A DNA stretch of 64,000 bases, from NCBI GenBank assembly GCA_963754945.1, contig CAVWIG010000024.1:1-64000 (forward strand), written 5' to 3'. Below the pieces are notes generated by a model, which did not search any database, was not told the origin of the DNA, and was given only the letters and a program-made list of their open reading frames with translations. Numbering within the stretch: position 1 is the stretch's first letter; the number at the start of each line of letters is the position of its first letter. This document shows positions 6,159 to 55,676 of this stretch, one piece after another. Source of the stretch: Methanotrichaceae archaeon (GTDB lineage: Archaea; Halobacteriota; Methanosarcinia; Methanotrichales; Methanotrichaceae). A program made the translations under genes and the position numbers.

Positions 6159-7053
6159 CCATCTTCATAATTCCCTCTGATCGTAAATAATTATGGGCGA
6201 AATCTACCCTGCGGTCGAAGCGATAAAAGTGCGTTCAGAATCACGCTTAGAGTATGCCCTCGACGATGCAAGTTGTTTCAGAGTATCTAATGGTTTTATG
6301 CGCAGCATCGGCTCAGTAGGTCGTTAGCAAATTTCGAGATAATGCTCCTTGTAAAAGTTTCGTTGGGGACGTCAATGCTTTCCATTTGGACTCGTGGAAT
6401 TGTTCTATTTCGCTGTCAGGTTGTACAATATAAATTATACAACCAGCCAGGCCGGTAAAATAAGCTATAAAATTTTATAAATCTGCTTTCGACCCCGTAA
6501 AGCCTCTTGCTTTTGCGCTCCAGGTTCTGCACCACAGCCGATAGCGGTTAAATCGAGGTCGGCCAAAGGGCTCAATCTGTGCCTATAGACTATATGATTT
6601 GCTGGAAGGAGTTGGGAGGCTCGTCGGGGCAGGCTCGATCTTGCAGAAGGTTCTTGCAAGTTACATTCACTCAGGCCATCAAAACAGTATCGAACAGTAC
6701 TTCTAGGCATCATCGCGAGTACAGCACGGTTAGACGCAACTTCAGCTAGCCCAAGGCGGCCATAACTCCCTGTCCCGGACATTAGTGCTACCTAAACGGC
6801 TTATTACCACAAATCCTGGGCATCCAAGGATGCCGCTCCATTAGAAATAGAATAATTAAAAATAGATAAAAAAAAGGCGTTAGTTGGTTATCCTTTAGCA
6901 AGGCTGGTTTCAAGTCTATTATATAGCCTCTCTTGCTGAGCCTTTTGACAAAAACAAGGACAAGGCTCATGCCCGAAGGATGAAGCGATATTTTTGGCAC
7001 TGCATTCATAAGACATCAATCTACATCAAAGAAAAGTTGAACAAAAAAGAGAA

Positions 7054-8220: not shown

Positions 8221-8332
8221 CTTTCGTTTGGCCTTCTTTCCAAGTATTTGTAATTATCCTGCTGGGTTCAGTCCTGGTTTCAGTCCTGTATGGTCCCGAG
8301 AAAATTTATGATTTGATGATATTTGATGATCT

Positions 8333-9550: not shown

Positions 9551-9958
9551 GGCTCTCTTTGCTCATAGCCAGAAGAGTAAATAGATTTTGGGCTGGCACA
9601 TCCGGACCAGGTGTTACAAATTGGGAGGTTCAATTGAACACAAAGTTTTTTCTTGCCTATGGGGGAAAGAGTCTATCGTCATATATTTTTTAAGTATCAC
9701 ATTGATATCGAGTTGTGTTAGCCTTATTGAGGGGATAGGGAAAACAATATATACATCCATTAATACATGTTTAAGTCGGGATGGATGAATTGGGACTTTT
9801 GCCCAGTTTGTATCGAGGTTCGGGATGAGGGATGTACTAACCGAGTGGACATAACGAGAGCTGGACAAATTGCAGAATAAGCAATGGAAGAGGGGCATTC
9901 TTCTTGGGGTGCATATTAGGAGCACGATGCCGCAGTGATGATCGGTCGGAGGTAGCTT

Positions 9959-30976: not shown

Positions 30977-31165
30977 CTAGCGACTGTCATTCAAGAGATA
31001 ACAGAGAGACAAATAACAGAAACAAATGTTTGGGTCGGAAATTGGTTTTCCGCTTCCTAATCGCTTAAACCCATACCACTGCTGAAGCAACAACACCTTA
31101 AACATTAAAAACATATCAATGTTGGGTGGCCTAAGTATCAAATTTGTATCTTGTGCCAATAACAA
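30977..31165 (-). pseudogene. IS5-family transposase N-terminal remnant
   Basis: RPPNIDMFLMFKVLLLQQWYG resembles the IS5 GRP..D..LMFK.LLLQQWYG motif; then degenerates. Confidence 0.7.
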
Positions 31166-31234
31166 GAAGCACTCTAGCGACCATCTTTGTGATCGAAGTA
31201 AATCACCTCAAATATAGGCGTCACGCTATTCGAT

Positions 31235-31429
31235 TCAATCTGCTTGTTTCATCCATATCGTCAGCCCGTGGTTGTTCTTGGTTAAAGTAAATCCCAGCTT
31301 TCTGAGTTCAGATCTAGCATCTTGCGGACTCAATCCACAGGCTCGGGCTACCCGCTTTAGTTCTCCGCGGTCAAGGATCTGATCTCTTAGACCCGGCTTA
31401 CGTTTTAAATATTCCCTAACGGGTTTCAT
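31235..31429 (-). CDS. Small basic hypothetical protein, possibly HTH-like
   Basis: 64 aa; GGAGA RBS; lies downstream of conserved motif copy 1. Confidence 0.6.
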   Translation of the reverse strand: MKPVREYLKRKPGLRDQILDRGELKRVARACGLSPQDARSELRKLGFTLTKNNHGLTIWMKQAD

Positions 31430-31484
31430 GGTTTATCTCCAGACCATCTTGTCCATGTCAAATCCAGCTACACCGTAGCGTGAA

Positions 31485-31516
31485 TTGAACGATATTTAAT
31501 ATCTGGACCGAACGAA
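31485..31516 (-). promoter_or_regulatory. Conserved motif copy 1 (TTCGTTC-N14-ATATCGTTCAA) with TATA-like core
   Basis: Reverse complement ttcgttc ggtccagatattaa atatcgttcaa; 55 nt upstream of the ORF starting at 31429. Confidence 0.7.
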
Positions 31517-32100
31517 CTATTAGAGCGGTTTTGACGAATGCCAGTAAATTCATTTAGGACCGTTCAATTCTTAAATCAAACCTCTAAATTAGTTCTGTTT
31601 AGATGTAGTCTCATTTTTCTGCAAATATCGCCTTTGCGCGATTTTCCTCAAGAAAGATATTTCAGAGCAGAGAACAGGTCCATTCAGTGAAATTGACGAG
31701 CCCTTGAGATTTAGCTCTCTAGTATCCTATTTCTAGGGGGTCAGGGCATTTTATCGATCTTTTCTGCCCATCAATGAAAATTACTATGTCGATGACATAT
31801 TGGTGATTGCCCTTTGGAATAGGATAGAGATAATCAACTCGAAGGTGAAATACGAAGGAAAAACATCCACAGCAAGACCATTCCTTTATGAAGGTCTTAA
31901 ATTAAGTGAAGGCAAAAATCCATAAGATTCAAAAATACAGGACAATCTTCCCAATCCTTATTTTGGCATTCGCCCTCTTCTTAAAGCAGCGGAATCCAAT
32001 AAATAAAAGGAATTTAGGCCGGAAAAACGCCGTTGAACCATAATGATGGTCTGTACCAAAATAAAACGTTTCTAATTGTTGTGCGAGCCTGACACGACCA

Positions 32101-32132
32101 TTCGTTCGGTCATATATTCATATATCGTTCAA
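32101..32132 (+). promoter_or_regulatory. Conserved motif copy 2
   Basis: ttcgttc ggtcatatattcat atatcgttcaa. Confidence 0.65.
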
Positions 32133-32420
32133 GAGAAAAGGATGGTTGAGGACGATTCCTTCACATAAAACAAGAATAATCGTTCTTTAACAGAGATAAA
32201 TAAACCATGAAATCGCTAATAAAGTCTTTGGCATTTGGTATGCTTTGTGAAGAAGCTGTGTTGCAAAGGAGAAGAGAGGCCAAAAAGGTTAAAGGTAGAG
32301 CCAGAGATACCTAGAAGCGAGGCAACCACGATTCCATACAGAAGATCTACAATGAACTCCTTATTTATTGGAATAGGCTGCTAACTTCAATAGTCCTCCT
32401 TCAATGCAATTAACAGGCAA

Positions 32421-33050
32421 TTGGGTTTGAAGATGAGATCAATAAGAAAAATTCTATTCATTGGGCTGACAGCCTTATGGCTGATGTACTTGATAGGAAA
32501 CAGCTTTGCTCAGACTCCAGAGATTGGAGATAGGGCACATAAAGAACTTGCTCAGAGTAATGTTCCTTTCGTCAAGCCTATCGGGATGATGGAAGGTGCG
32601 CCTGAAGGAATAATTTTTCACCATTGGCGAGGTTTTGCCTTAAAAGGGAATGAATCCTACCCCCTGAGGATCAGCATCGAGAGCGTGAGGCCTGTTGAGC
32701 CAGTGAGTGTTAGAAAACTCCTGGCGTCAAATATGACCATTGAGGAAGTTAGTAAGAAGATTTTGGACCAGGAAGGAAATACGACTTACCGGGGCCATAT
32801 CATGTTGCAAGATAGCCCATATCAGCTTATCAACATCAAAATGACATTCGCAAAGAACAACTTAACCCTGAACGCTGATGTGATTGCGTCCCAAAATAGT
32901 GCTGCCCCCAGCAATACCACAATGATTCTAGGACAACTCAGGGTAGACACCACTAGCCAAGAGGGCGCAAAGAAAAGCCAAGGTGTGCTTATCATCAATG
33001 ACGGATTGCATAGTGGTGGCTACCAGGTATTACTCAACATGGTTCATTGA
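32421..33050 (+). CDS. Secreted hypothetical protein
   Basis: Signal peptide (RKILFIGLTALWLM..SFA); beta-rich body with several N-x-T sequons. Confidence 0.75.
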   Translation: MGLKMRSIRKILFIGLTALWLMYLIGNSFAQTPEIGDRAHKELAQSNVPFVKPIGMMEGAPEGIIFHHWRGFALKGNESYPLRISIESVRPVEPVSVRKLLASNMTIEEVSKKILDQEGNTTYRGHIMLQDSPYQLINIKMTFAKNNLTLNADVIASQNSAAPSNTTMILGQLRVDTTSQEGAKKSQGVLIINDGLHSGGYQVLLNMVH

Positions 33051-33434
33051 GCATGCAAGAGCGGAGTAAAACAACCATCCTGCTTAGGGATGTAACTCTC
33101 GTTTATCTCGCTTTCGGATGCACTACAGTAAAACATCCTCAAGAGATGGTTTTTGGGAGAAGATCAAGCGAGAATTAAACGGATTATCAAGTGCAGATCA
33201 TGACCTTGGTATTGAAGTAATACGTTGGGGAGTCTATATAGCCGATCGGGAGCAAAACTGTAGCTGAAGACGTTACGCCCATGTGAAGTTGCCCGATACG
33301 GAGTTTATCCTTCGTTTCTTAAAGCGGACCGGTTCGAGTTCCTCCATGAGTCTTGCGTGGAGAATTACCTGCGAAATCATCGTTTGCTTTTCGGTGCACG
33401 GATCTTGCCCATATGGTTGTCCTTATTTCTGATA

Positions 33435-34487
33435 TCAATCGCATTCGCAACTTTCGTTTGAGTAAATATAATATCTGAGCGGGTTTGAAGCTGAGGTATC
33501 ATCCTGGTCCGCAGTCCTCACATGGATTTTGTCCATGAGAGCGATATCTCTGTTTCTGGTTAGTGTGATCGGATTGTCCTTGTTGTCCATTATGATGGTC
33601 ATCGCGTTCGGATCGACTAGCCTTATGGACATCTTTTCATACTGCTGGCCAGTTGTTATGGTTGTTGGTGTGTCTGATATCTGAAATATCCCATCAATAG
33701 TGGCGACGTTGCTGTGAGAACTGCTGAATACGCTCTTGAAGTGGACAGCAATGATAACTATGCCCTTTAAGTCACCCAGGTCTTTCTTGTAGTAGTAAGT
33801 CTGGTCACCCATGTTGGCATTTTCTATTGAAGGCTGAATGACCTTGTTATCGACGATTTTGCCATTCTTGCTGAGTTCCAGATAAACCTTCTTGCTATCG
33901 GAATCTATAGCCTTGATAGAGAGATTATAGCCTTCATCCAGCTCCAAGGGGCTTGACGAGTCGAATGTCTTTTCAGTATTGTCATCGTTCAAGATCTCAC
34001 TGATCAGCTCGTCAGTCATTAGGTTCCTTTTCTCGGACTTATCGTATAGGAACGGAACTGACTGGCTGGTGGCACTCAAATCCCATGTTACGTTGCTGTC
34101 ATACGCCGCAAAGTAATCCTCGCCGAGGAAACCAATCTCATCATACTGACCCCATGGCCCAAAACTAAAATCAATAGGTATTGCCTCTGTGGTATAGACT
34201 ATGCCCCTGTTGCCATTGGTATCTGGTTCATCGCTGAGAGTAGCGCTAGCCTTGTCTTGAGCTATATTAGATAGCCTGAAAGTTAGATTTTCAGTGCCAA
34301 TGTCCTCACCAATATCATAGTAGAAGCCTGGAAATGTGTAGCTATCCCAAGTGACCCTTTTCTCTCCAAGGTCATGAACATCGCTTCGGACATCAATTCC
34401 TTGTGCTTGAGATAAAATCGACATAGTGAGTAAAATAATTATTGTGTAGATGCAGATTAGAGCTATATTTCTATTTTTATCTATCAT
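33435..34487 (-). CDS. S-layer domain protein (single Methanosarcinales-type DUF1608-like repeat)
   Basis: Signal peptide; TWDSYTFPGFYYDI, IGFLGEDYFAAY, LELDEGYNLSIKAID, DGIFQISD, LRYYIY. Confidence 0.85.
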   Translation of the reverse strand: MIDKNRNIALICIYTIIILLTMSILSQAQGIDVRSDVHDLGEKRVTWDSYTFPGFYYDIGEDIGTENLTFRLSNIAQDKASATLSDEPDTNGNRGIVYTTEAIPIDFSFGPWGQYDEIGFLGEDYFAAYDSNVTWDLSATSQSVPFLYDKSEKRNLMTDELISEILNDDNTEKTFDSSSPLELDEGYNLSIKAIDSDSKKVYLELSKNGKIVDNKVIQPSIENANMGDQTYYYKKDLGDLKGIVIIAVHFKSVFSSSHSNVATIDGIFQISDTPTTITTGQQYEKMSIRLVDPNAMTIIMDNKDNPITLTRNRDIALMDKIHVRTADQDDTSASNPLRYYIYSNESCECD

Positions 34488-34914
34488 TTAGATCCTTTTC
34501 AAATGATGTATCTTCCTTTAAGCGTAATTACTGAACGGAATCTCCAATCCATATTGTATCTTCTCCAATATAAGAATGTATGATTATATGACGTCTTCCC
34601 GATCGCTTAAGAAAAGATATTTTGGAACGTAGTAGCTCAAGAGAAGCCTCCTATAGATTACAGCATTGTATTCGATATCGTAATTGGTGATACGCCATGC
34701 CGAAAATAGCCTGTGGGACCAAGAGGTAGTTCCAGGATCAAATAAGTTCGCGAAGTCAAAGAACTTGAATATGAATCTAAAAAGATATCATTATTGGCGT
34801 AAGATGGCCGAATAATTGACATTAATTCTTGCTTATTTTTCCATGAAAATGTCGCCTATGATATCGATTTCATTCTCCATGTATGATTCACTGAATCATG
34901 AGGGTTTAAACGTA

Positions 34915-35041
34915 ATACCCCGCAGCTTGCTGCGGCTGGGATAAGGATTATAATCAACCTAAGGATGCTTCAGCTTTCATAGAGCATTTTTATGCGTCGG
35001 CGGAATCATGCCCCTTGCTTGCAGCTGGGTCCGCCGACGCA
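34915..35041. mobile_element. Probable IS200/IS605-type non-autonomous remnant with palindromic ends
   Basis: Hairpin ccgcagc-tt-gctgcgg (34920-34935) and perfect 12-bp inverted repeat tgcgtcggcgga/tccgccgacgca (34993-35004/35030-35041). Confidence 0.5.
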
Positions 35042-35178
35042 ACGTTTGACTCTCCTGTGAAACGGGATTTTGGATCGGTTTATACCAAACTGAACTATTA
35101 TGAAGGTTTAAATGATTTTCCGAACAGTTTTATTGACATAATTCACTGTTCGCGCTGGTCTTATACGGTTCGTTCGGG

Positions 35179-35210
35179 TTCGTTCTGCTCTATCTTTTTA
35201 TATCGTTCAA
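35179..35210 (+). promoter_or_regulatory. Conserved motif copy 3, with an extra TTCGTTC 10 nt upstream
   Basis: ttcgttc tgctctatcttttt atatcgttcaa; 63 nt upstream of 35274. Confidence 0.7.
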
Positions 35211-35273
35211 AAGAATGAATTGCTGGATCACTCTTGCAACTAGAGTTGATCTTGAAAAGTGGAGGTATAATCA

Positions 35274-36083
35274 ATGAATTACGTTAGATATCTAGTGGTA
35301 TTGATAGCCGCATTCTCTCTCATGATACCGGCATTTTCGATGCCAGACGATGGACACTCAACAGGATGCTCAGATAACCAACAAAAAACTTTTGACAACC
35401 AGAATTCCATGATGGGACCCGATGGTCAACAGCAGATTGGCCCCAAGTCCATGATGGGGAATGATGGCAAAAAAATAGTATGCCTAACCATATGCAAAGT
35501 CATAGGTCAGGATGGACAAGAGAACGCTGCCCCCAGATCCATGATGGGTGAGAACGGACAGGATGTCAAGGACAAGACTTGCGGCTGTCAGAACTCAGTG
35601 AAAGGAGATCAGGGACAAGACGGCCAGCAGAAGACATGCGGTTGCCAGGCTGGACAAGAGAACGCTGCCCCCAGATCCATGATGGGTGAGAACGGACAGG
35701 ATGTCAAGGACAAGACTTGCGGCTGTCAGAACTCAGTGAAAGGAGATCAGGGACAAGACGGCCAGCAGAAGACATGCGGTTGCCAGGCTGGACAAGAGAA
35801 CGCTGCCCCCAGATCCATGATGGGTGAGAACGGACAGGATGTCAAGGACAAGACTTGCGGCTGTCAGAACTCAGTGAAAGGAGATCAGGGACAAGACGGC
35901 CAGCAGAACTCATCGAATGACGGCCAACAGAAGACATGCAGTTGTCAGAACTCAGTGAGTGGAGATCAGGGACAAGACGGCCAGCAGAACTCATGGAATC
36001 ACGGCCAACAGAAGACAAGCCATGAGTCTATGAAGGGTCAAGACGGTCAGCAAAACTCATGGAATGATAGCCAGAACCAATGA
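35274..36083 (+). CDS. Secreted low-complexity Gln/Gly/Asn protein with 46-aa Cys-x-Cys/Met-Met repeats
   Basis: GGAGG RBS; signal peptide; repeated TCGCQ and SMMG. Confidence 0.8.
   Translation: MNYVRYLVVLIAAFSLMIPAFSMPDDGHSTGCSDNQQKTFDNQNSMMGPDGQQQIGPKSMMGNDGKKIVCLTICKVIGQDGQENAAPRSMMGENGQDVKDKTCGCQNSVKGDQGQDGQQKTCGCQAGQENAAPRSMMGENGQDVKDKTCGCQNSVKGDQGQDGQQKTCGCQAGQENAAPRSMMGENGQDVKDKTCGCQNSVKGDQGQDGQQNSSNDGQQKTCSCQNSVSGDQGQDGQQNSWNHGQQKTSHESMKGQDGQQNSWNDSQNQ
35513..35908 (+). repeat. 138-bp in-frame tandem repeat, about 2.9 copies
   Basis: Unit starts tggacaagagaacgctgcc at 35513, 35651 and 35789; copies read as identical. Confidence 0.92.
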
Positions 36084-36340
36084 AGGAAATAGCGCATTTA
36101 CCGAGTAGAAAGGACTTGAAGCGGTCAGGATATTTCTTTCCTGACCAAATCCCTTTTAAAATCAATTTGTCTGTGATAGAGTGAATATGATTGGAGGAAG
36201 ATTCTGTCAGTACCATAAAACTCTCACATCAAGAGTCTCTCTGGTTCTGCTCCGTACTCATGCTGAGGTTCGACGCGTTTTTATTCAATGAACATCTAGC
36301 ATAAAGTACAGATCTAAATATCGAATGGAGGAAATCAAAT

Positions 36341-37816
36341 ATGAAAAAAAACTATTGTCTGGCAGTGCTGATATTTCTAATAATCAGTAGCATGGCATTA
36401 ACTGCATCAGCGGACTCAACAAAAAATACAGCTCCAATGAATTATCCTTCAGAGGCGAATTCACGAGGATATGAAGCGAATCAAGGAACATCAGATCAAC
36501 TGCAAACTACTTTGACTCTTTTTGTCCTGGATGGGGGCGTAAATGGCCCGGTGCTTCCTGGAGCGACGGTCACTGCATATGATGCGTCTGGTAGCAGTTT
36601 TAATGGAATAACCGACTCAAAAGGATCCGTTAGCATCAGCGGAAAACCAGGAAACTGGCGATTTACAATTTCAAAAGAGGGCTATGAAACCGTTAACTCG
36701 AATTACGACGTCACCGAAACGCATACAGCTGCGACTTATCTAAAGAAAAATCCACTGCCTCAAGAAACGGTCGCTCTGACAATCTATGTTCACGACGGGA
36801 ACCTCACGGGACCTCAACTCCCTGGTGTACATGTCTCCGGCCAGGACGCATCAGGTAACGGCTTTAACCAGCTAACCAACGCGGATGGATCTGTAGTAAT
36901 TAATGGACAGCCTGGAACCTGGCAGTTTATGTTCGCGAAGGACGGCTACAACCCGGTTAGCCTGAATTACAGTGTGACTGCGACCCAAACAACTGCAGCT
37001 TATCTCCAGAGGAATCCACAGACTCAAGAAACAGTTGCACTAACAATCTATGTTCATGACGGGAACCTAACAGGACCTCAGCTTCCTGGTGTACAGGTCA
37101 CCGGTCAAGACGCTTCGGGTAATGGCTTTAGCCAGCTGACCAACGCGGATGGATCTGTAGTAATTAATGGACAGCCTGGAACCTGGCAGCTAACGTTCTC
37201 GAAGGATGGATATAAACCGGTCAGCCTGAATTTTAGTATGGCAGGGACGCAAACAACTGCGGCTTATCTCCAGAGAATTGCACAGACTCAAGAAACGGTT
37301 GCGCTAACAATCTATGTTCACGACGGGAACCTGACCGGACCCCAGCTTCCTGGTGTACAGGTCACCGGCCAGGACTTTTCGGGCAATGGCTTCAACCAGC
37401 TGACGAATTCGGATGGATCTGCGACCATCAACGGACAGCCTGGAACCTGGCAGTTCATGTTCTCGAAGGATGGCTATAAACCGGTTAGCCTGAATTACAA
37501 TGTGACAGCGACCCAAGCAACTGCAGCTTATCTCCAGAAAAATCCACAGACTCAAGAACAGGTTGCTCTGACCATTTATGTTCACGACGGGAACCTAACA
37601 GGACCTCAGCTTCCCGGTGTCCAGGTCTCCGGCCAAGACGCATCCGGTAATGGCTTTAGCCAGCTGACCAACGCGGATGGATCTGTGATCATCAACGGAC
37701 AGCCTGGAACCTGGCAGTTCACATTCTCGAAGGATGGCTACAACCCTGTTAGCCTGAATTACAATGTGACAGCGACTCAAGCAACTGCAGCTTATCTCCA
37801 GAGTATTACAGCCTAA
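36341..37816 (+). CDS. Secreted protein with five ~88-aa beta-sandwich repeats (carboxypeptidase-regulatory/CnaB-like)
   Basis: GGAGG RBS; signal peptide; LTIYVHDG..LPGV.V..TNADG..PGTW.F.FSKDGY four times plus one divergent copy. Confidence 0.85.
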   Translation: MKKNYCLAVLIFLIISSMALTASADSTKNTAPMNYPSEANSRGYEANQGTSDQLQTTLTLFVLDGGVNGPVLPGATVTAYDASGSSFNGITDSKGSVSISGKPGNWRFTISKEGYETVNSNYDVTETHTAATYLKKNPLPQETVALTIYVHDGNLTGPQLPGVHVSGQDASGNGFNQLTNADGSVVINGQPGTWQFMFAKDGYNPVSLNYSVTATQTTAAYLQRNPQTQETVALTIYVHDGNLTGPQLPGVQVTGQDASGNGFSQLTNADGSVVINGQPGTWQLTFSKDGYKPVSLNFSMAGTQTTAAYLQRIAQTQETVALTIYVHDGNLTGPQLPGVQVTGQDFSGNGFNQLTNSDGSATINGQPGTWQFMFSKDGYKPVSLNYNVTATQATAAYLQKNPQTQEQVALTIYVHDGNLTGPQLPGVQVSGQDASGNGFSQLTNADGSVIINGQPGTWQFTFSKDGYNPVSLNYNVTATQATAAYLQSITA

Positions 37817-37821
37817 AAACC

Positions 37822-37835
37822 TATTTTATTTTTTT
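37822..37835 (+). terminator. T-rich archaeal terminator-like tract
   Basis: tattttattttttt directly after the stop codon at 37816. Confidence 0.45.
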
Positions 37836-38180
37836 GATATTCTCGAATTTTCAACATATTACTGTCATCTTTGGTGATGAATGTGTCATCCATATATGCC
37901 ATTCACGACTCTCGGTGTATATTTTTGATGTTGTACATCCACTTTTCTGACCATTCCGACTTCAGAAGCTTATCCTTTCTCAGATTAATGCCTGAGGGAT
38001 GCTTGCGAAAATTCTCAATCTAACCGCTTAAACAGAACCGAATAGCTACCAGGAGTTGTTAATAAGTAAAATAACGTAAATTAAGGCAAATAGCTAAAAA
38101 CAGAACTGTTTTATTAGTTTAAATTAAAAATCGAACATTATTAAACAATTATTAGCACTTCTAAAAAACAAGTTTAATAG

Positions 38181-38212
38181 TTCGTTCGGTCCAGGTTATA
38201 AATATCGTTCAA
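38181..38212 (+). promoter_or_regulatory. Conserved motif copy 4; probable NRPS promoter
   Basis: ttcgttc ggtccaggttataa atatcgttcaa; TTATAAAT about 25 nt upstream of ATG 38228. Confidence 0.7.
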
Positions 38213-38227
38213 TTGGGTTCATATATA

Positions 38228-41200
38228 ATGTTTGAAAAGAGGGCTCAGAGTTTATCGATTCCAAACACTCAAGTAAAGCCTGCCATGTTGCAGCAGTTGT
38301 TCGAAAGAACAGCCGATACAATGCCAGATCGCATCGCAGTCATCTGTGAAGGAAAGGAATACACCTACTTAGAACTGGAACACTACGCAAACCGCATTGC
38401 TCATTACTTGAGCGAAAGAGGTGTTAAGTTTGGGAACCGTGTTGGTATCCTGTTGAAGCGCTCGATCGAGACTTATGCCGCGATAATCGCTGTTCTGAAA
38501 CTCGGCGCTGCGTATGTTCCACTTGATACAAGCTTTCCCAGTGACCGCATTCGTTTTATTGCTGAGGATGCTGAGTTTAGCATGCTGATTTCGACCGAAT
38601 CGATCTCAGCCCGAAAGGCTGCGAACAAAAGCCCTCAGGTGCTTTTGGATCGTGAAAAGGCAGTAATTGCATCGCAACCTGGTAGTCGTCCCGAGATTGC
38701 CCTTTCCGGCCAGCCCGAAAGGGAGCTTTGCTACATTATTTACACTTCTGGCTCCACTGGCAGGCCGAAGGGTGTAGAGGTCGAGCATCGAAGTGTAGTC
38801 AATTTGATCAACGTCGTGACCGAGATCTACGGTATCAAGCCTGAAGACCGTGTTTTTCAAGGAATCACTATTGCTTTTGACTTTTCGGTCGAAGAGATCT
38901 GGATGGCATTCAATGCAGGCGCGACACTAATTGCTGGTCCAGCAGAAAAGGGGAGCTGCGTCGGCAACGAACTCGCCCGTTTTCTCATCGAGCAGCGTGT
39001 GACCGTTCTAGGCGCCGTGCCGACCATGCTTTCGTCGATCGATAAAGACATCCCAAGCCTCAGGCTGATTGAAGTCGGCGGTGAGCCGTGCCCTCAGAAC
39101 TTGGTTGACCGCTGGGCAAAGCCAGGACGACGCTTCCTCAACACTTACGGCCCAACTGAAACTACTATCACAGCGACCTGGGCAGAGCTGGAACCGGGAA
39201 AGCCTGTAACGATTGGACGACCGTTGCCGAGCTATAAGGTGCTTATCGCTGACGAAGCAGGTCGGAGAGTGCCCAATGGCGAGATCGGCGAGATCTATAT
39301 CGGAGGAGTGGGTGTCGCCCGAGGGTATGTCAAACGACCCGATATAACCGCCGAGCGCTTCATACCGGATCCAGACGCAGAACCAGGATATGCAAGGCTC
39401 TATCGGACCGGCGACCTTGGACGCTACACAGAGGCCGGTGAGATCGAATATCATGGGAGGGCAGATCTACAGGTAAAGCTGCGCGGCTACCGCATTGAGT
39501 TATCGGAGATCGAATCGGTAATCTTGAAGTCCGACGACGTTCAGGCGGCTGCAGTGGCAGTGATGCCATCTCCTGATGGAATCGAGGAGCTTGTCGCCTA
39601 CGTAACTCCAAAACTCGGCCACAACGTCGATCCTGCGAAGCTCCATGATCTGCTTCACTACTACATGCCACCCTACATGGTACCGGCTTATATAGAGTTG
39701 ATCAATGCACTCCCCGTCCTTCCCAGCGGCAAGATCGACCGCAAGGCCCTGCCCAAGCCTGGTTTGACCCGCCTGGGTTCTAACAAGCCATTCGTCGCTA
39801 CCAGAGGAGAGGTTGAAACCCATATCTCTGAAGTCTGGAGCAATGTCCTGAGGCTGCCGCAGATTTCAGCGACCGACGACTTCTTCCGTGACCTCGGCGG
39901 TCACTCGCTTTTCGCAGCCTTTGTGGTCTCGAAGCTGAGGGAGAATCCGGCGTTCGTGCATTTGAGCATGGCCGATTTCTATGCTAACCCGACTGTGCAG
40001 AAGCTCGCAAGGCTAGGTACTGCTGCTGAAGACCCCAATGGAATCTCGATTGTCGAACAGCCTAAAAAAACTACGTTCAAAGCACGTGCGTCGAAGAGGC
40101 TCGTAGCCGCTCAATCCTTATCTCTGTACTTGATGTTTGGCATTCCTGGCCTGATGATGATCCTCTGGCTGTATCTGTCTCAGAGGCTGACCGGAGGCGA
40201 TACCCTACTGAACTACGTGTTTATTGGGCTGCTTTTGTACTTGCTCTATATTCCCGCCTCAGTTGCTGTCGCAGTCGTCGCGAAACGGTTGCTGATAGGC
40301 CGGTTTAAACCAGGCGTGCATCCGCTGTGGGGTGATGCTTATCTGCGCTGGTGGCTGGTAAACCTAGCACAAAGGTTCGTGCCGGTGTCCATGTTTGTGG
40401 GCACTCCACTGATGGTCTGGTATTGCCGCCTGATGGGCGCAAGGATCGGCAAGGATTGCTACATCGGCACTGGTCTCGTTTCCTGCCATGACTTGATCTG
40501 CCTAGGCGATGGCACCAGCGTCGGCAACGGTAGCTACTTGTTGGGTTACTCCGTAACGTCTGGCAGCATCGAGTTCGGCACAATCGACATCGGTAGCGAC
40601 TGTTACATAGGAGCCAACAGCGTGCTCGGCATCAACACCATAATGGGCGATGGCGCAATGCTTCTCGAACAATCTCAGCTTGCCCATGGAAGCATGCTGT
40701 CGCCCAGCTATGTCGCTAACGGTTCACCAGCACGTTCTCGACCAATCGATCAGGCTCCCCCGTTCGTTGTGCCCGTAACGCAAGGCAGGCAACGTGTGTC
40801 GGAACGGATGTTGATTGCGGGATTCCTGGTTTCAGGCATGTTATTTCTGCCGCTTGTGCCGCTCTTGGCTGGGATACCCGGAGTTCTATTCGATTGGTGG
40901 CTGATCACGAACTATCCGGGAAATGTCTGGACCTGGGTCGTCGGCCTGATTTTAGCTGGCGCCATGTTCGTCTCATCCCTATGCATACTCGTTACTGGTT
41001 GCAAGCGGCTAATACTGCCAGATGTCAAGCCGGGCGGATACCCGTTGCAATCCACTTTCTACCTGCGCAAGTGGACGGTCGACGCGCTCGTGGGATTGAC
41101 CCTGATGCTCAATAATGCGCAGTATGGGACGCTTTACATAGCCCCCTTCTTGCGTATGCTCGGAGCTAAGATTGGTGTGCGCGGCGAAATCTCGACAGTT

Positions 41201-42316
41201 TCCAATATCACTCCTGAGCTGCTCACAATCAAAGACGAGGCCTTCGTCGCTGATCTGGCTTCGATAGGGCCAGCTCGAGTGTACCGAAAGACACTGATGG
41301 TCGCGCCCATTACCATAGGCGTCCGCACTTTCATCGGCAACTCTTCGGTGGTGCCGGTCGGTGGAAATGTTCCCGATGGTTGCCTTATAGGGGTACAGTC
41401 GACTCCACCCCAAGCCACGATTTATCCCGGCAGTTCCTGGCTGGGCCTGCCTCCGATGTACCTCCCTCGCCGGCAAGTTGTCGAGGGCTACACCGAAGAG
41501 CAGACATTCAACCCACATCTGGGCGCCTATGCGTTGCGCTACGGCTACGAATTCTTCCGAATCACGCTTCCGCCGGCCTTCGCGTTTGGCATTTTATGGG
41601 CTCTATACTTCTTGTCGCAAGCAAGTCTCGCCACACTGGGGTTAGGTTTTTCCCTACCACTGCTGCCGTTGTTCTACCTGGCTCCAGCGTTCGCGACAAT
41701 ACTCGCAGTCGCCGCACTAAAGTGGATATTGATTGGTCGCTACCTGCCGCGCTTCGAGCCATTGTGGAGCCACTTTGTACGCCGCACTGAACTCATCACC
41801 GGGCTCTATGAAAATGTCACTGTGCCACTCCTTCTGGGATTCTTGACCGGCACTCCGCTCATCCGGCCGATGTTGCGTTTGTTGGGTGTAAAGCTCGGTC
41901 GTAATGTTCTCCTCCTGACCACTTTCATGAGCGAGTTCGACCTTACCGAAGTTGGGGACAACAGTGCCATTAACCCTGGGGTCTCACTGCAGACTCATCT
42001 GTTTGAAGATCGTGTGATGAAGATGTCATACGTCCGAGTCGGCCCCGATTGTACGATCGGTGAACGCAGCGTGGTGCTCTACGATAGCGAGATGAAGGCA
42101 GGTGCGCGCCTGGGGAACCTTTCGTTGCTGATGAAGGGTGAGGTGCTTGCCAAAGGCAGCGAATGGGAAGGTTCGCCAGCGCAGCCGGTGCTACGAGTTG
42201 AAGCCATATTGTCTCCGCAGGCCAAATCTAAGAGACATATGGTAGTTCAGCCAAAGCAGAGTCTAAAGCATTCGGGATCATTGTCAAGAAACCCGAGCCT
42301 CGGGAAGAGTGTGTAA
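38228..42316 (+). CDS. Pls/PosA-family single-module membrane NRPS (adenylation-thiolation-3x TM/hexapeptide C-terminal region)
   Basis: YTSGSTGRPKG, FDFSVEEIW, NTYGPTE, YRTGD, QVKLRGYRIEL, PSGKIDRKAL; T domain LGGHS; three K..L....PG..PL(W/Q)...R.LG..IG/LG modules. Confidence 0.92.
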   Translation: MFEKRAQSLSIPNTQVKPAMLQQLFERTADTMPDRIAVICEGKEYTYLELEHYANRIAHYLSERGVKFGNRVGILLKRSIETYAAIIAVLKLGAAYVPLDTSFPSDRIRFIAEDAEFSMLISTESISARKAANKSPQVLLDREKAVIASQPGSRPEIALSGQPERELCYIIYTSGSTGRPKGVEVEHRSVVNLINVVTEIYGIKPEDRVFQGITIAFDFSVEEIWMAFNAGATLIAGPAEKGSCVGNELARFLIEQRVTVLGAVPTMLSSIDKDIPSLRLIEVGGEPCPQNLVDRWAKPGRRFLNTYGPTETTITATWAELEPGKPVTIGRPLPSYKVLIADEAGRRVPNGEIGEIYIGGVGVARGYVKRPDITAERFIPDPDAEPGYARLYRTGDLGRYTEAGEIEYHGRADLQVKLRGYRIELSEIESVILKSDDVQAAAVAVMPSPDGIEELVAYVTPKLGHNVDPAKLHDLLHYYMPPYMVPAYIELINALPVLPSGKIDRKALPKPGLTRLGSNKPFVATRGEVETHISEVWSNVLRLPQISATDDFFRDLGGHSLFAAFVVSKLRENPAFVHLSMADFYANPTVQKLARLGTAAEDPNGISIVEQPKKTTFKARASKRLVAAQSLSLYLMFGIPGLMMILWLYLSQRLTGGDTLLNYVFIGLLLYLLYIPASVAVAVVAKRLLIGRFKPGVHPLWGDAYLRWWLVNLAQRFVPVSMFVGTPLMVWYCRLMGARIGKDCYIGTGLVSCHDLICLGDGTSVGNGSYLLGYSVTSGSIEFGTIDIGSDCYIGANSVLGINTIMGDGAMLLEQSQLAHGSMLSPSYVANGSPARSRPIDQAPPFVVPVTQGRQRVSERMLIAGFLVSGMLFLPLVPLLAGIPGVLFDWWLITNYPGNVWTWVVGLILAGAMFVSSLCILVTGCKRLILPDVKPGGYPLQSTFYLRKWTVDALVGLTLMLNNAQYGTLYIAPFLRMLGAKIGVRGEISTVSNITPELLTIKDEAFVADLASIGPARVYRKTLMVAPITIGVRTFIGNSSVVPVGGNVPDGCLIGVQSTPPQATIYPGSSWLGLPPMYLPRRQVVEGYTEEQTFNPHLGAYALRYGYEFFRITLPPAFAFGILWALYFLSQASLATLGLGFSLPLLPLFYLAPAFATILAVAALKWILIGRYLPRFEPLWSHFVRRTELITGLYENVTVPLLLGFLTGTPLIRPMLRLLGVKLGRNVLLLTTFMSEFDLTEVGDNSAINPGVSLQTHLFEDRVMKMSYVRVGPDCTIGERSVVLYDSEMKAGARLGNLSLLMKGEVLAKGSEWEGSPAQPVLRVEAILSPQAKSKRHMVVQPKQSLKHSGSLSRNPSLGKSV

Positions 42317-42320
42317 CAAT

Positions 42321-43028
42321 ATGCGCCCGTCTCTGTTCGAGCTGTGGCGGGCATGCGGCGTTTTCCCGCCAGGACACGGAGAGTGCCTTAAACCCGGGCA
42401 GGTTCTTGTACATGCACTGCCGCTAGACTGTGGCTCGATGAAAGCAGTCTGGCCCTTTCTTTCCCATGACGAGCAAGCTAGAGCTGCAAGCTATGGTCGA
42501 GAGCTAGACGGTCTGCGTTTCGCAATCTCTAGAACTCTATTGCGTGGGGTGTTGGGGCTCTATACCGGAATTAATCCCCACAATCTAGTATTTCTCTATG
42601 GACCTCACGGACGGCCCCGGCTGGCTCTCGACCAGGCCAATGACTTGGATTTCAATTTAGCGCGAAGAGATGATTGCTGCGTGATTGCGTTGGGTTTAGG
42701 CCGGCGCGTCGGCATAGATCTTGAATCTCGTTGTCTTTCCAAATTGGTTGAAGCTACGGTAATGATGTCTGCGGGAGAAGATCGGTTCGCACTAGAAGAA
42801 GCTCGGGGGGATGAACGCAGCATGCGTCTGATCGAAGAATGGACGACGCTAGAAGCTAGAGCAAAGGCAATTGGAACCGGGCTATGCGACATGGTTACGC
42901 ATAACGCCGCATTGACATGCCGGAAATTCGAGCTAGGCAAAGAGTGGATCGGTTGTATCGCTTCAGAAGGTCATAATTGGCATTTCAAGCTTATTTTAGA
43001 AACGAACTTGACGACCAATAGCATATAG
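42321..43028 (+). CDS. Sfp-type 4'-phosphopantetheinyl transferase
   Basis: LSHDEQARA, GPHGRP, FNL, VGIDLE, WTTLEARAKAIGTG; starts 4 nt after the NRPS stop. Confidence 0.85.
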   Translation: MRPSLFELWRACGVFPPGHGECLKPGQVLVHALPLDCGSMKAVWPFLSHDEQARAASYGRELDGLRFAISRTLLRGVLGLYTGINPHNLVFLYGPHGRPRLALDQANDLDFNLARRDDCCVIALGLGRRVGIDLESRCLSKLVEATVMMSAGEDRFALEEARGDERSMRLIEEWTTLEARAKAIGTGLCDMVTHNAALTCRKFELGKEWIGCIASEGHNWHFKLILETNLTTNSI

Positions 43029-43209
43029 GCCGTTAAGGCTCTTTGTAGCCAGGACTTCCAGCCAAATTGCGACGATAAGATCGTCGATAACTTCCTTATA
43101 CATATATCACAGAATAATATAACAGAAATGCCATTTTTTTTCGCAAAATCTTAAATAGCATAGATCCTAATAGAATTGAGAATGCATAAGCGAGAAGGAG
43201 AGATGATTA

Positions 43210-43764
43210 GTGCATCGTATAATGTATTTTATATTGATTGGGTCATTAGCAATATTTGGCCTAGCAACAACCGCAATGGCCGCGGATCAGCTAATAAAAA
43301 CAGATCTCTCCAACTCAGATGGAATTTTGAAGTTAAGCGACAGCACAGCGAATAACGCTATTAACAAGTTTCCTTTCTTTGTCCTCGATTGTTACGTCCC
43401 ATGGTGTGAACCATGCAAGACTATGAGCACTGCACTTTATGAACTGGCCGGTGAGCTGAGGGGCCAAGTGACTTTTGGACTGATCGATATCGAAAATAAT
43501 TCGGTGACAGCGAGAAGGTACAATATCACGTCTTACCCAACGCTTCTGATTTTCAAGAACGGAATGCTAGTAGATAACCAAGCAGGATACGGTTCGAAGT
43601 CGGAACTCGTAGATTTACTTCAAATGGATGATCCAGGGTTGAATACCGGCAGTGCTGCGCTTGCGGCTCCACATCAGCCGCCGACTACCCCATTGAGCTC
43701 AAACTACTCACAAATGACAACACTTGATCCAATTAGGGATCTAACGACATACAAAATGCCTTAA
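43210..43764 (+). CDS. Secreted thioredoxin-family protein
   Basis: Signal peptide; WCEPC; YNITSYPTLLIFKNG. Confidence 0.85.
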   Translation: MHRIMYFILIGSLAIFGLATTAMAADQLIKTDLSNSDGILKLSDSTANNAINKFPFFVLDCYVPWCEPCKTMSTALYELAGELRGQVTFGLIDIENNSVTARRYNITSYPTLLIFKNGMLVDNQAGYGSKSELVDLLQMDDPGLNTGSAALAAPHQPPTTPLSSNYSQMTTLDPIRDLTTYKMP

Positions 43765-43841
43765 CGATCATGAGTAGAAGGAATTGTGCCAGATTTCACC
43801 CGAACCACAAAAAAGGATTTCTGGTTGCATCAGAATCTTAA

Positions 43842-44255
43842 TCAATTGTGCTTCGCGAAAGATTTGACTGCATTAAGTGCATTGGTTGTATTTTTATTAG
43901 TCGCGTTTATGCTTGCGGGTATGATCGTGTTCGTGATTTCGGTTAGATTCTGAATTAATACGATGTTCAATGTAACATTCTGAAGCATGATCATTTCCAT
44001 GGACCCATTGGCCATCTTACTAGGCATATTCATCGGCATCGTCATGTTCATCGGCATCGTCATGTTCATCGGCATCGTCATGTTCATCGGCGTTGTCATG
44101 TTCATCGGCGTTGTCATGTTCATCGGCGTTGTCATGTTCATCGGCGTTGTCATGTTCTTCGCCATGCTACCTTTCTCTGTCAAGGCCACTCCTCCAAAAG
44201 AGAGTATCAATAGTATTGATAGTAGTGCCAATCCAGCCAATACGGAGCTTCTCAT
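43842..44255 (-). CDS. Secreted Met/Asn/Thr-rich repeat protein
   Basis: Signal peptide; NMTTPM x4 and NMTMPM x3. Confidence 0.75.
   Translation of the reverse strand: MRSSVLAGLALLSILLILSFGGVALTEKGSMAKNMTTPMNMTTPMNMTTPMNMTTPMNMTMPMNMTMPMNMTMPMNMPSKMANGSMEMIMLQNVTLNIVLIQNLTEITNTIIPASINATNKNTTNALNAVKSFAKHN
44029..44157. repeat. 18-bp tandem repeat x7 (coding)
   Basis: ttcatcggc(atc/gtt)gtcatg: three atc then four gtt variants. Confidence 0.92.
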
Positions 44256-53414: not shown

Positions 53415-53786
53415 TCACTTGTAACTGTGCAGGCCGACGCTATTCCCCTCGGTGTCCATTATCATTGCTATCCAGCCCATATCGCCTATCTTAAGTTTCG
53501 GTGTGACGATCTTTCCGCCGGACTTTTCTACTCTTCCAATTACCTCATCGAGTATTCCCTGACAACTCAGGTAAACGCGTGTGCCGTTGGCGCATGGCTT
53601 TGCTCCCAATCCCGGAGGCACTATGTCGCCGCCAACACCTTCCATTCCTTCCATGGGGAAGAAACCGAGCTTTTGCCCCATGAATGTGTCCACGCGGATC
53701 TGTTGGCCTAGAATGTCAGAATAGAACTTAACCGCACGATCAAAATCCTCGGTTGGGATGTCAAACCAAGTTATTGCGTTTTTCAT
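53415..53786 (-). CDS. VOC/glyoxalase family protein, copy 1
   Basis: WFDIP..DFDRAVKFY..MDTEGNSVGLH; start reassigned to MKNAI. Confidence 0.9.
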   Translation of the reverse strand: MKNAITWFDIPTEDFDRAVKFYSDILGQQIRVDTFMGQKLGFFPMEGMEGVGGDIVPPGLGAKPCANGTRVYLSCQGILDEVIGRVEKSGGKIVTPKLKIGDMGWIAMIMDTEGNSVGLHSYK

Positions 53787-53873
53787 AGTAGTAATAGGAC
53801 TTGTGATGCTATAAATGTTTCTAAATTTTTGAAGAAGTATCCACGCGGTTTTTGATATCTTTTTCGTCCTCAA

Positions 53874-53974
53874 GAACAGCTTCATCAGCTCCTCGGCGAT
53901 TATCCGGTAGCCCGCCTCGTTTGGATGATCCAGCCCTGGAATGATCAACGACTTAATGGAGTTCCCTTGCGCAC
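53874..53974 (-). pseudogene. 3' fragment of an SGNH hydrolase, paralogous to 57117-57218
   Basis: Encodes SLIIPGLDHPNEAGYRIIAEELMKLF, the same as the C-terminus of 57114-57731. Confidence 0.8.
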
Positions 53975-54081
53975 GCGCTTCGTTGTAAGAGGGCCGGGGA
54001 GAATCCGAAAGAGAAGACGAGTTGGTAAAGGGCGCTACCAGAGGCAGTGCCAGAAGGCCAGAAGGCAATCCTTTATCTATA

Positions 54082-55172
54082 ATAGGACTTACGCAGTTGA
54101 ATCTTTCGACAATGAATAATAAGGATATTTTATATATTCGCGAATTGACTCGCGAATAATTCTTCGCTTAGATTCGAACCAACTTATTCCTATTCTAAGC
54201 CTTTCTACTTCTAATCTGAGAAACGCTCTCAGGGAGAACATTATGTGTGCTCTCTGGGACTGACTTTTTCTTGCTTGACAGCTTTCGACTCCACAGAATT
54301 GCTTTATGCCTCTGTGATATTCCTCAATCTTCCAGGAATATCCACCAAATTTTTCGCGTTTAGCTTCGTCTATCTCCAGCACGTCAGTTGCCCAGTATCC
54401 TATGTCACCGTCATTAGAGACTATCCGGAATACTTTTATAAAACCATAAGCTTTTAAATGCACTTCCCTGCCTTGCAACGGTATCTCTATCTCCTGAATT
54501 TGCATATTTTTGGTGTTATTCGGATTCACTAGCCTATTTTTCTTCAATCGGGTCAGCCAGTGCCATCCAGACTTTCGTATGGTTTTGAGATTATCTACAC
54601 TGGCATACCAGCTATCGAAGAGAACAATACGGGGCTGAAAACGCCGTTCTTTTGCTTTGGCAAGCATATCTCGAAAATGATCATTTTTTGTCTTGCCGTC
54701 GACATCTATATCGTAGATTCGGAAATCAACGGGAATTATAGCGTTTCCATCTGTCCACAGCAACGTACAAATATTGATTCCATTCACCAATCGATGCTGT
54801 TTTCCACTCCATTGATGATAGACTAGGCTCATATTTTTAGCATATGGCTTGTCCAACGTCGTATCGTCAATAACCAAGAAACCATTTTGAGGCTGAACAA
54901 TATCCTTTACCTCATTCCACAACGTATCCGTATCTGGAGGCTGTCTTTGTAGAAGACGGGTAAATGCATCATGCGATGGACTATTTTCTCCTACTGGCTG
55001 GCACCTTGCAGCCTCAGTACAGGTAAAAACATCTACTGATGCTATCAGAAAGTGAATATAATCAAGATCATCGCACTTGGAAGGATTCAAGTTCAGCCCT
55101 ATCCCATTTATTTGTTGGTATTAATATAGCATATGCAATATAAGAAGATTCTGCCAAGTGCGTAAGTCCTAT
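54082..55172 (-). mobile_element. IS701-family insertion sequence
   Basis: TIRs ataggacttacgcagttg / caagtgcgtaagtcctat (17/18 match); AT-rich flanks, TSD ambiguous (possibly ATA). Confidence 0.88.
54089..55090 (-). CDS. IS701-family DDE transposase
   Basis: SHDAFTRLL, IDDTTLDKPY, FDSWY, WKIEEYHRGIKQ. Confidence 0.9.
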   Translation of the reverse strand: MNPSKCDDLDYIHFLIASVDVFTCTEAARCQPVGENSPSHDAFTRLLQRQPPDTDTLWNEVKDIVQPQNGFLVIDDTTLDKPYAKNMSLVYHQWSGKQHRLVNGINICTLLWTDGNAIIPVDFRIYDIDVDGKTKNDHFRDMLAKAKERRFQPRIVLFDSWYASVDNLKTIRKSGWHWLTRLKKNRLVNPNNTKNMQIQEIEIPLQGREVHLKAYGFIKVFRIVSNDGDIGYWATDVLEIDEAKREKFGGYSWKIEEYHRGIKQFCGVESCQARKSQSQRAHIMFSLRAFLRLEVERLRIGISWFESKRRIIRESIREYIKYPYYSLSKDSTA

Positions 55173-55221: not shown

Positions 55222-55590
55222 TCATTTGGAACTGTGCAGGCCGACGGTATTTCCCTCAGTGTCCATGATAATTGCTCTCCACCCCATATCGCCGAGCTTA
55301 AATTTCGGAGCGATGATCTTTCCGCCGGACTTCTCTACTCTTCCGATGACCTCATCGAGTATTCCCTGGCAACTCAAGTAAACGCGAGTACCATTGGCGC
55401 AGGGCTTTCCCCATTTCGGGAGCACTAAGTCGCCGCCAACACCTTCCATTCCATCCATAGGGAAGAAGCCGAGCTTTTGCCCCATGAAGGTGTCGACGCG
55501 GATCGGTTGGCCGAGAATGTCAGAATAGAACTTCACAGCACGATCAAAATCCTCTGTAAAGATGTCGAACCAGGCTATTGAGTCTTTCAT
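55222..55590 (-). CDS. VOC/glyoxalase family protein, copy 2
   Basis: Close paralog of 53415-53786; start MKDSI. Confidence 0.9.
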   Translation of the reverse strand: MKDSIAWFDIFTEDFDRAVKFYSDILGQPIRVDTFMGQKLGFFPMDGMEGVGGDLVLPKWGKPCANGTRVYLSCQGILDEVIGRVEKSGGKIIAPKFKLGDMGWRAIIMDTEGNTVGLHSSK

Positions 55591-55676
55591 AATGATAGTA
55601 ATAGGACTTGTGATGCTATAAATGTTTCTAAATTTTGAAAGAAGTGTTCCATTGAACAATAATGCAGAGACCGCAA

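Follow-up and report, generated by a model that had tools for sequence, protein, structure and literature searches.

The window analysed here is a 64,000-nucleotide stretch of the genome of a Methanotrichaceae archaeon (assembly GCA_963754945.1, contig CAVWIG010000024.1, positions 1 to 64,000 of the forward strand). It contains a gene for a single-module non-ribosomal peptide synthetase (NRPS) of the Pls/PosA family (pls), the product of which is organized into an adenylation (A) domain, a carrier or thiolation (T) domain, and three modules, each formed by a transmembrane hairpin and a hexapeptide beta-helix domain. The stop codon of pls (TAA, 42314–42316) is followed by the four nucleotides CAAT and then by the ATG, at 42321, of a gene for a 4'-phosphopantetheinyl transferase (PPTase). 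An earlier note on this DNA had described the same combination of a synthetase and an adjoining PPTase, and the observation is confirmed. The features of the locus are listed below; positions are those of the window and residue numbers those of the encoded proteins.

38196..38205, +, TATA-box-like TTATAAATAT, its centre about 28 nt upstream of the ATG at 38228 (sequence reading)
38228..42316, +, Pls/PosA-family single-module synthetase gene (pls), 1362 residues plus stop (open reading frame, Pfam, NCBIfam)
38300..39733, +, adenylation domain, residues 25–502 (Pfam, NCBIfam, motif search)
38879..39172, +, specificity pocket, D218 F219 E222 G262 E282 G284 T306 I314 T315 (alignment to PosA and Pls)
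39731–39733, +, lysine K502, which completes the code DFEGEGTITK
39824..40012, +, carrier (thiolation) domain, residues 533–595 (Pfam PP-binding, 30.7 bits against 20.8)
40100..40801, +, module 1, transmembrane hairpin (about 625–691) and left-handed beta-helix domain C1 (hydropathy, repeats, AlphaFold, module alignment)
40802..41542, +, module 2, transmembrane hairpin (about 859–931) and beta-helix domain C2 (hydropathy, AlphaFold, module alignment)
41543..42181, +, module 3, transmembrane hairpin (about 1112–1173) and beta-helix domain C3 (hydropathy, AlphaFold, module alignment)
42321..43028, +, divergent Sfp-type PPTase, 235 residues (HMM, alignment, AlphaFold and Foldseek)

Structure of the synthetase and the adjoining transferase

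The pls open reading frame (ORF) runs without an internal stop from the ATG at 38228. An alternative in-frame TTG is located at 38213, and the database copy of the protein has 1362 residues, in agreement with the ATG start. The Pfam matches of the protein are AMP-binding (residues 25–367), AMP-binding_C (427–502), PP-binding (533–595), and Hexapep repeats, and no Condensation or Thioesterase family is among them. TIGR02353, the NCBIfam terminal-domain model named 'Pls/PosA family non-ribosomal peptide synthetase', matches residues 628–1318 over positions 2–695 of its 695 with a score of 551.3 bits against a cut-off of 423.1 (553.9 bits in the whole-genome scan), and TIGR01733 matches the A domain with 430.7 bits against a cut-off of 317.4. 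The core motifs of the A domain are SGSTG at residue 174, YGPTE at 307, GEIYIGG at 354, YRTGD at 392, GRADLQVK at 410, and PSGKID at 499. The phosphopantetheine-attachment Ser560 is the last residue of the motif LGGHS (556–560) of the carrier domain and is encoded by codon 39905–39907, where the earlier note had placed it. All columns that are invariant across 41 aligned family members are retained in the pls protein.

The C-terminal part of the protein contains six hydrophobic segments in three pairs (625–651 and 657–691, 859–894 and 898–931, 1112–1135 and 1137–1173; Kyte-Doolittle scan), and the three modules are 24–32% identical to each other (E-values from 2e-6 to 1.5e-21). The AlphaFold model of residues 600–1362, calculated from 41 aligned sequences, has a pLDDT of 88.3 and a pTM of 0.87 and is composed of three repeats of two long helices and a beta-helix. 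The predicted fold agrees with the published description of the PosA model (PMC10522769; this paper and PMC12042044, PMC8117764, and PMC4668381 are cited throughout for excerpts of their text). A Foldseek search with the model retrieved only hexapeptide acetyltransferases, which have a single module (E about 3e-4), and provided no full-length analogue of the C-terminal domain in the PDB; when the C-terminal 763 residues were compared with PDB sequences, only two weak matches, to hexapeptide proteins, were obtained. The uninterrupted A-T-(transmembrane plus hexapeptide module)x3 frame reported before is thus borne out by the ORF, Pfam, NCBIfam, hydropathy, and module similarity. The family-invariant stretch QTHLFEDR-MK-S (residues 1255–1267) is located in module 3 and is absent from modules 1 and 2, which suggests a functional asymmetry among the three modules.

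The same architecture is found in the characterised members of the family. PosA, the delta-poly-L-ornithine synthetase of Acinetobacter baumannii (PDB 8g95–8g98 for the A domain), has the A-T-(transmembrane pair plus beta-helix)x3 organization, as does the founding member of the family, the epsilon-poly-L-lysine synthetase Pls of Streptomyces albulus (PDB: 7wew). PosA comes from a bacterium, whereas the host of the present gene is an archaeon, and posA is described as a single-gene operon (PMC10522769), whereas the archaeal pls has a translationally adjacent PPTase gene. The beta-poly-L-diaminopropionate (PDAP) synthetase PDAPs of Streptomyces albulus PD-1 (Xu et al. 2015, PMC4668381) and the gamma-poly-diaminobutyrate (PDAB) synthetases PldA/PddA are likewise single-module A-T enzymes with tandem C domains separated by transmembrane segments; seven transmembrane segments are reported for PDAPs (PMC4668381), whereas six hydrophobic segments are present here.

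The start of the PPTase gene at the ATG at 42321 agrees with the N-termini of its homologues. The AlphaFold model of the PPTase (pLDDT 86.3) has the two-domain fold of group II PPTases, and its best Foldseek matches are human AASDHPPT (PDB: 2cg5) and Bacillus Sfp (PDB: 4mrt, 1qr0), with TM-scores of 0.69–0.72 and E-values from 1e-9 to 7e-11. The PPTase and its close relatives can be aligned with bona fide PPTases; the motifs GIDLE and W-T-x-x-E-A-x-x-K, which also occur in Sfp and AASDHPPT, are retained, and the magnesium-binding and catalytic residues D133, E135, E178, and K182 are invariant across 17 aligned sequences. The spacing, the fold, and these residues uphold the earlier assignment of an Sfp-type PPTase 4 nt downstream of pls. 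The host genome (G000) is a 2.97-Mb metagenome-assembled genome (MAG) that is 87.7% complete. Its only PP-binding match is the pls ORF and its only ACPS-like match is the adjoining ORF, and the co-occurrence of the two at one locus supports a self-sufficient unit, as the earlier note had anticipated. The two genes are adjacent in all four carrier genomes (G000, G002, G019, and G041), which include contigs of 2.2 Mb and 161 kb.

Specificity pocket and candidate monomer

The specificity code was read residue by residue against the A domains of PosA (8g95) and Pls (7wew), and a MAFFT alignment of 114 homologues was also used. In the PDB, the pocket segment is most similar to PosA (135 bits) and Pls (114 bits), and other solved A domains score at most 55 bits; together with the TIGR02353 score above the curated cut-off, these matches bear out the Pls/PosA-type architecture that had been proposed. 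The nine pocket residues map onto D217, M218, E221, H260, N280, G282, T304, V312, and S313 of PosA. The same alignment columns reproduce the published PosA code DMEHNGTVSK (PMC10522769) and yield, in Bacillus-type homologues, DAESIGTV.K codes of the lysine type. Asp1, Glu3, Gly6, Thr7, and Lys10 are identical in PosA and the archaeal protein, whereas Met2 is replaced by Phe, His4 by Gly, Asn5 by Glu, and Val8-Ser9 by Ile-Thr. The code of Pls obtained from the alignment is D-A-E-S-I-G-T-V-V, the Ala2 of which suits lysine, whereas the archaeal protein has Phe2. The archaeal code given in the main text of PMC10522769, DLEDIGTV.K, is unlike DFEGEGTITK.

The acidic residues of the segment FDFSVEEIW (residues 217–225), which the earlier note had considered fitting for a diamino acid, are in the expected places: D218 and E222 are the counterparts of D217 and E221 in PosA, which are Asp1 and Glu3 of the code. 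Asp1 and Glu3 anchor the two amines of the substrate in diamino-acid binding mode 1 (PMC10522769, PMC12042044), and a glutamate at position 3 is described as the hallmark of the diamino-acid binding mode of the Pls/PosA family (PMC12042044). The bulk of residue 2 governs the substrate's chain length, with Phe in PDAP and PDAB synthetases, Met for ornithine, Ala for lysine, and Gly for beta-lysine (PMC10522769, PMC12042044). Asp1 and Glu3 of the archaeal code thus suggest a diamino-acid substrate, and Phe2 points to a short one. The protein groups with Phe2 sequences, and Phe2 is the residue reported for PDAP and PDAB synthetases (PMC10522769).

Two types of code with Phe2 can be distinguished among the related loci. 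A gene for a class-III aminotransferase neighbours the synthetase gene in 10 of the 73 loci with a readable pocket; all 10 carry the code DFECLS[A/V]VTK, which occurs in none of the remaining 63. These loci (L039, L040, L042, L055, L071, L076, L088, L090, L106, and L111) are bacterial, and the aminotransferase gene is immediately downstream. Because of this neighbour, and because a dat gene beside a poly-diaminobutyrate synthetase gene has been published (PMC8117764), DFECLS[A/V]VTK looks like a 2,4-diaminobutyrate (Dab) code and a usable signature for poly-diaminobutyrate synthetases. The Dab type has Ser-Ala/Val at positions 6–7, whereas the archaeal protein has retained Gly-Thr, as in a larger group with codes of the form DFE..GT[V/I]TK. 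This group includes cyanobacterial sequences that the PosA paper calls PDAP-like (PMC10522769), and the shared Gly-Thr makes 2,3-diaminopropionate (Dap) the first choice. From its code, the pls protein appears more likely to use Dap than Dab. Provided that the enzyme is an active diamino-acid homopolymer synthase, we tentatively give Dap slightly less than an even chance of being its monomer; a monomer other than these two is doubtful yet well conceivable, and Dab is unlikely. The earlier statement that the substrate cannot be called from the sequence is therefore refined, as Phe2 points to a short diamino acid.

Several observations limit the substrate assignment. Gly and Glu at code positions 4–5 are unlike those of any bacterial homologue examined, which makes the transfer of the Dap assignment uncertain; position 5 is acidic in 9 of the 114 homologues and 3 of the 73 loci, all from the Methanotrichaceae clade. 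The comparison with PDAP and PDAB synthetases is based on their reported residue 2. In the genome, 87.7% complete as stated above, the best matches to the SbnA family (142 bits, cut-off 350), SbnB (175 bits, cut-off 327), and the Dab transaminase (122 bits, cut-off 402) remain below the thresholds. The SbnB-like gene of the host has no pyridoxal-phosphate (PLP) enzyme gene as a neighbour, and no aminotransferase is encoded in the flanks of the cassette within the window. In BLAST searches of host proteins against the ORFs of 78 related loci, ornithine cyclodeaminase-like and PLP-enzyme proteins had no matches among the neighbours, and the aminotransferase alone matched.

Some of these observations lend weight to the alternative that pls belongs to the same family and works by the same mechanism, but that the archaeal clade has remodelled its pocket (Gly4, Glu/Asp5) for a monomer other than Dap, which could be Dab, a diamino acid of greater length held by the second acidic residue, or a compound new to the family. 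The confinement of the acidic position 5 to the Methanotrichaceae clade is consistent with this alternative, and Gly at position 4, which is mostly Tyr or Cys in bacterial relatives, could deepen the pocket. The SbnA/SbnB pair for Dap synthesis was not found in the incomplete genome, and unusual codes can signal new substrates (Patel and Gulick, PMC10522769). However, the residues of PosA at positions 4–5 (His260 and Asn280) make no contact with the substrate, and Phe2 is the published limiter of chain length (PMC10522769). Furthermore, the Dab-associated code departs from DFEGEGTITK at positions 4 to 8, and the Dab transaminase is likewise without a match over its cut-off. We regard a monomer other than Dap selected by a remodelled pocket as rather unlikely, and Dap remains the preferred reading.

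Distribution, origin, and genomic context of the cassette

TIGR02353 scores above its cut-off in 4 of the 105 species genomes of the Methanotrichaceae family, which belong to 2 of its 16 genera, but not in any of 400 further genomes drawn evenly from the phylum. The PPTase profile matches 7 of the 105 genomes: the four pls carriers, one genome with an NRPS-like gene, and two of genus g10. The pls ORFs are intact in G000, G019, and G041, and in G002 the ORF is broken off by the contig end. Names attached to close homologues include 'Methanotrichaceae archaeon' and 'Methanothrix sp.'.

In a maximum-likelihood tree of 113 sequences, which is unrooted, the 12 close homologues group together (SH-aLRT 100). 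Their clade is nested among bacterial sequences, and its sister group consists of five Sulfuriferula/Pseudomonadota sequences (support 100 for the pair). Another protein labelled Euryarchaeota is located far off in the tree, in a clade with a lysine code. The identity of pls is at least 62% within its clade and at most 47% outside it. Since the archaeal clade is sister to the Sulfuriferula-type bacterial clade, an origin of pls from bacteria by horizontal transfer appears likely. A PPTase-like ORF is present within 7 kb of the Pls homologue in 20 of the 78 related loci, mostly actinobacterial, and the pairing is therefore not an archaeal invention and may have been transferred as a unit. Among host genes, pls ranks at the 64th percentile for GC content and at the 47th for GC at third codon positions (GC3), and its codon-usage distance is 0.046 against a host median of 0.056. 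This fully host-like codon usage indicates a long residence. The simplest history would be that Methanosarcinales-type methanogens acquired the gene from bacteria, harboured it for a long time, and lost it repeatedly; the unrooted tree does not establish the donor.

The gene is conserved under constraint, with a ratio of nonsynonymous to synonymous substitution rates (dN/dS) of 0.13–0.15 against three orthologues, over dS of up to 1.2; the dN/dS of the PPTase gene is 0.13–0.42. Contigs from all four peat metatranscriptome runs cover pls and one covers the PPTase gene, at 90–99% identity, which is a hint of transcription. The sequencing-run shares are all below 0.31, and the RNA runs compared are labelled peat. 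From the position of TTATAAATAT, we infer that the archaeal transcript might be leaderless or nearly so. A sigma-70 promoter and terminator scan was set aside as irrelevant to archaea.

The distribution raises the question of whether the cassette is a silent or decaying passenger, acquired horizontally and without a product in its present host. Its occurrence in the family is patchy, and it is dispensable, since neither gene turned up in whole-genome searches of a congeneric genome that is 99% complete. In genus g10, short pls remnants are accompanied by PPTase pieces with in-frame stop codons, and a close homologue labelled Methanosarcinaceae is fragmented into at least six ORFs. Genes for monomer supply were not found over cut-off in the genome searches. 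The PPTase is divergent and misses the Pfam and NCBIfam cut-offs (AASDHPPT_N, PF22624, 25.5 bits, below 27; ACPS, PF01648, 18.2 bits, below 25; HetI model, NF042922, 71 bits, below 370); compared with Sfp and AASDHPPT, it has ARR in place of SHS and Leu in place of the Lys next to (before) the catalytic Glu, and it lacks about 24 residues behind motif 3. The contigs from the RNA libraries belong to relatives and may include DNA carry-over, and their depth cannot rank genes. All of these points weigh against a working cassette. On the other side, the frames are full-length and intact in three of the carriers, dN/dS is low, every family-invariant column of pls and the metal ligands of the PPTase are retained, the codon usage speaks for long residence, and the RNA-library contigs on pls add a weak argument. 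The departures of the PPTase are common to the whole Methanotrichaceae clade. A passenger without a product is thus quite improbable, and we prefer a cassette that works.

Fragments and more distant relatives also occur elsewhere. The g10 remnants (L118, G011:C50, and L120, G011:C24, both at contig ends; L119, G023:C21) are 47–61% identical to pieces of residues 875–1332 and look like decayed copies of the cassette. The Methanosarcinaceae-labelled homologue (L041, an uncultured organism) is 72% identical, its ORFs span 6974–10767, and a shortened PPTase-like ORF is at 11312–11782; it is either a pseudogene or the result of assembly indel errors. Its flanks (Usp, LarE, split cysK, CBS-hydrolase) do not reveal the domain of life, and a nearby PLP-enzyme gene considered as SbnA was rejected because it is the split cysK. 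The NRPS-like gene mentioned above (L117, G012:C78:97–3615, minus strand) belongs to another genus and encodes a 913-residue protein, A-T with an additional C-terminal part that matches no assigned family, that is 30% identical to pls over residues 1–607; it is followed by a HetI-like PPTase gene (229 bits) and located beside a KaiC-like gene. ORFs of 224 and 229 residues in relatives without pls (L006, G006:C26:15960–16562; L007, G020:C104:6725–7033) match single TIGR02353 modules with 69–84 bits and may encode stand-alone proteins with transmembrane segments and a beta-helix.

The contig with pls is 123 kb long, and the flanks of the cassette encode AglB, the alpha and beta subunits of archaeal PheRS, a PF07752 S-layer protein, RadA, an RPA-like OB protein, and MetRS. 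Directly upstream of pls in the second genus is that same S-layer gene. The gene mcrA is on another contig of the MAG, and the label 'methanogen' therefore depends in part on binning. The contig linkage that the earlier note had proposed as a check holds, and with archaeal flanks, four agreeing assemblies, and host-like codon usage, a chimera is very unlikely. That pls is bacterial DNA misjoined or misbinned into the assembly is hardly credible: the MAG carries 3.2% estimated contamination and misbinning does happen, as shown by a Methanoregulaceae-labelled homologue that adjoins a gene for BamA and hence is on a bacterial contig, but archaeal hallmark genes are on both sides of pls, the pair recurs in three further assemblies (including the 2.2-Mb and 161-kb contigs), preceded by the same S-layer gene, pls is host-typical in GC, GC3, and codon usage, and bacterial homologues are at most 47% identical.

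The Methanoregulaceae-labelled contig (L048, an uncultured organism) was rejected as evidence for an archaeal occurrence; the BamA in its flank consists of Omp85 and five POTRA domains, and the contig is bacterial and probably misbinned. Its Pls homologue is 46% identical and split into three ORFs; the ORFs considered on this contig are 1434–2720 and 2539–4428.

The segment of the window from about 31,000 to 44,100 contains the S-layer gene, two ORFs at 35274–37816, pls, the PPTase gene, and a thioredoxin gene, and GC is lower (0.42–0.46) at 30–38 kb. In G001, a congeneric genome, the contig does not begin until window position 44096, and nothing of high identity matches the segment from 31.0 to 44.1 kb; absence and an assembly gap look the same at this locus. 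The segment may be a variable region. The ORF just upstream of pls (36341–37816, plus strand) encodes a 491-residue protein with four carboxypeptidase-regulatory-like domains; RNA-library contigs from all four peat runs cover it, and it is not found upstream of pls in the second genus. Farther downstream, glyoxalase/bleomycin-resistance-like fragments (53415–54068 and 55222–55659, minus strand) surround an IS4-type DDE transposase gene (54089–55090) and are followed by a Mutator-family transposase gene (55729–56922), so that a gene may have been split by an insertion sequence. In G000, a cysK-like gene (C17:111327–112215, minus strand) and a class-III aminotransferase gene (C28:75956–77089, minus strand) match their families in two pieces with an in-frame TAG, for which a frameshift, a sequencing error, or a read-through codon could account.

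Proposed mechanism and significance

We consider it likely that pls and the PPTase gene form a working two-gene cassette of bacterial origin that resides in a few Methanotrichaceae methanogens, and a somewhat stronger case can be made that pls is an active diamino-acid homopolymer synthase. In the mechanism that we propose for this activity, the PPTase would move phosphopantetheine from coenzyme A to Ser560 of the carrier domain. The A domain would adenylate a short diamino acid with ATP and load it onto the phosphopantetheine arm as a thioester, with Asp218 binding the alpha-amine, Glu222 the side-chain amine, and Phe219 shortening the pocket; 2,3-diaminopropionate would be the most likely monomer and 2,4-diaminobutyrate the next. 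The C-terminal domain, with six predicted membrane helices and three beta-helix acyltransferase-like domains arranged as a pseudo-trimer, would repeatedly couple the tethered monomer to a free monomer or oligomer, at the side-chain amine of the latter. The chains would be released without a thioesterase, and a polycationic isopeptide homopolymer would exit the cell at the membrane. Its role could be antimicrobial or lie in a sheath or in aggregation, as the earlier note had suggested. Yamanaka and colleagues are said to have described for Pls, in 2008, an iterative mechanism of this kind, in which free polymer serves as the acceptor (an acceptor-donor scheme).

The protein is solidly supported as an archaeal member of a known enzyme family. 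The novelty is less than the earlier note had assumed, because NCBI already annotates proteins of related Methanotrichaceae MAGs as 'Pls/PosA family non-ribosomal peptide synthetase [Methanotrichaceae archaeon]'; relatives of the PPTase are labelled '4'-phosphopantetheinyl transferase superfamily protein'. Homologues in a few archaea are mentioned by Patel and Gulick in 2023 (PMC10522769). In the excerpts of the literature on homopoly(amino acid)s that were covered, the characterised producers are bacteria, plus one fungus. A literature search revealed neither a characterised homopoly(amino acid) from an archaeon nor an account of the Methanotrichaceae cassette; on Pls-type enzymes of methanogens, it gave the general remark in PMC10522769 and, from parts of a peatland survey, NRPS clusters in Halobacteriota MAGs.

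Epsilon-polylysine and other homopoly(amino acid)s serve as antimicrobials and cell-penetrating polymers. A polycationic product would extend the biology of the acetoclastic-type methanogens of peat and fens, organisms that drive methane emission. The cassette provides an example of bacterial secondary-metabolism genes resident in archaea that are otherwise without carrier-protein machinery, and as a compact two-gene unit it could be expressed heterologously. The Dab-type code DFECLS[A/V]VTK, found in all ten loci with an aminotransferase gene, may aid substrate calls across the family. In both genera, the cassette adjoins the same S-layer-domain gene. It is conceivable, albeit improbable, that the clade re-tuned the pocket after the transfer for a monomer new to the family, and that the polycation is part of the cell surface or aggregation matrix and not an antibiotic. 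If so, the product would be the first homopoly(amino acid) from an archaeon and would represent a new polymer chemistry.

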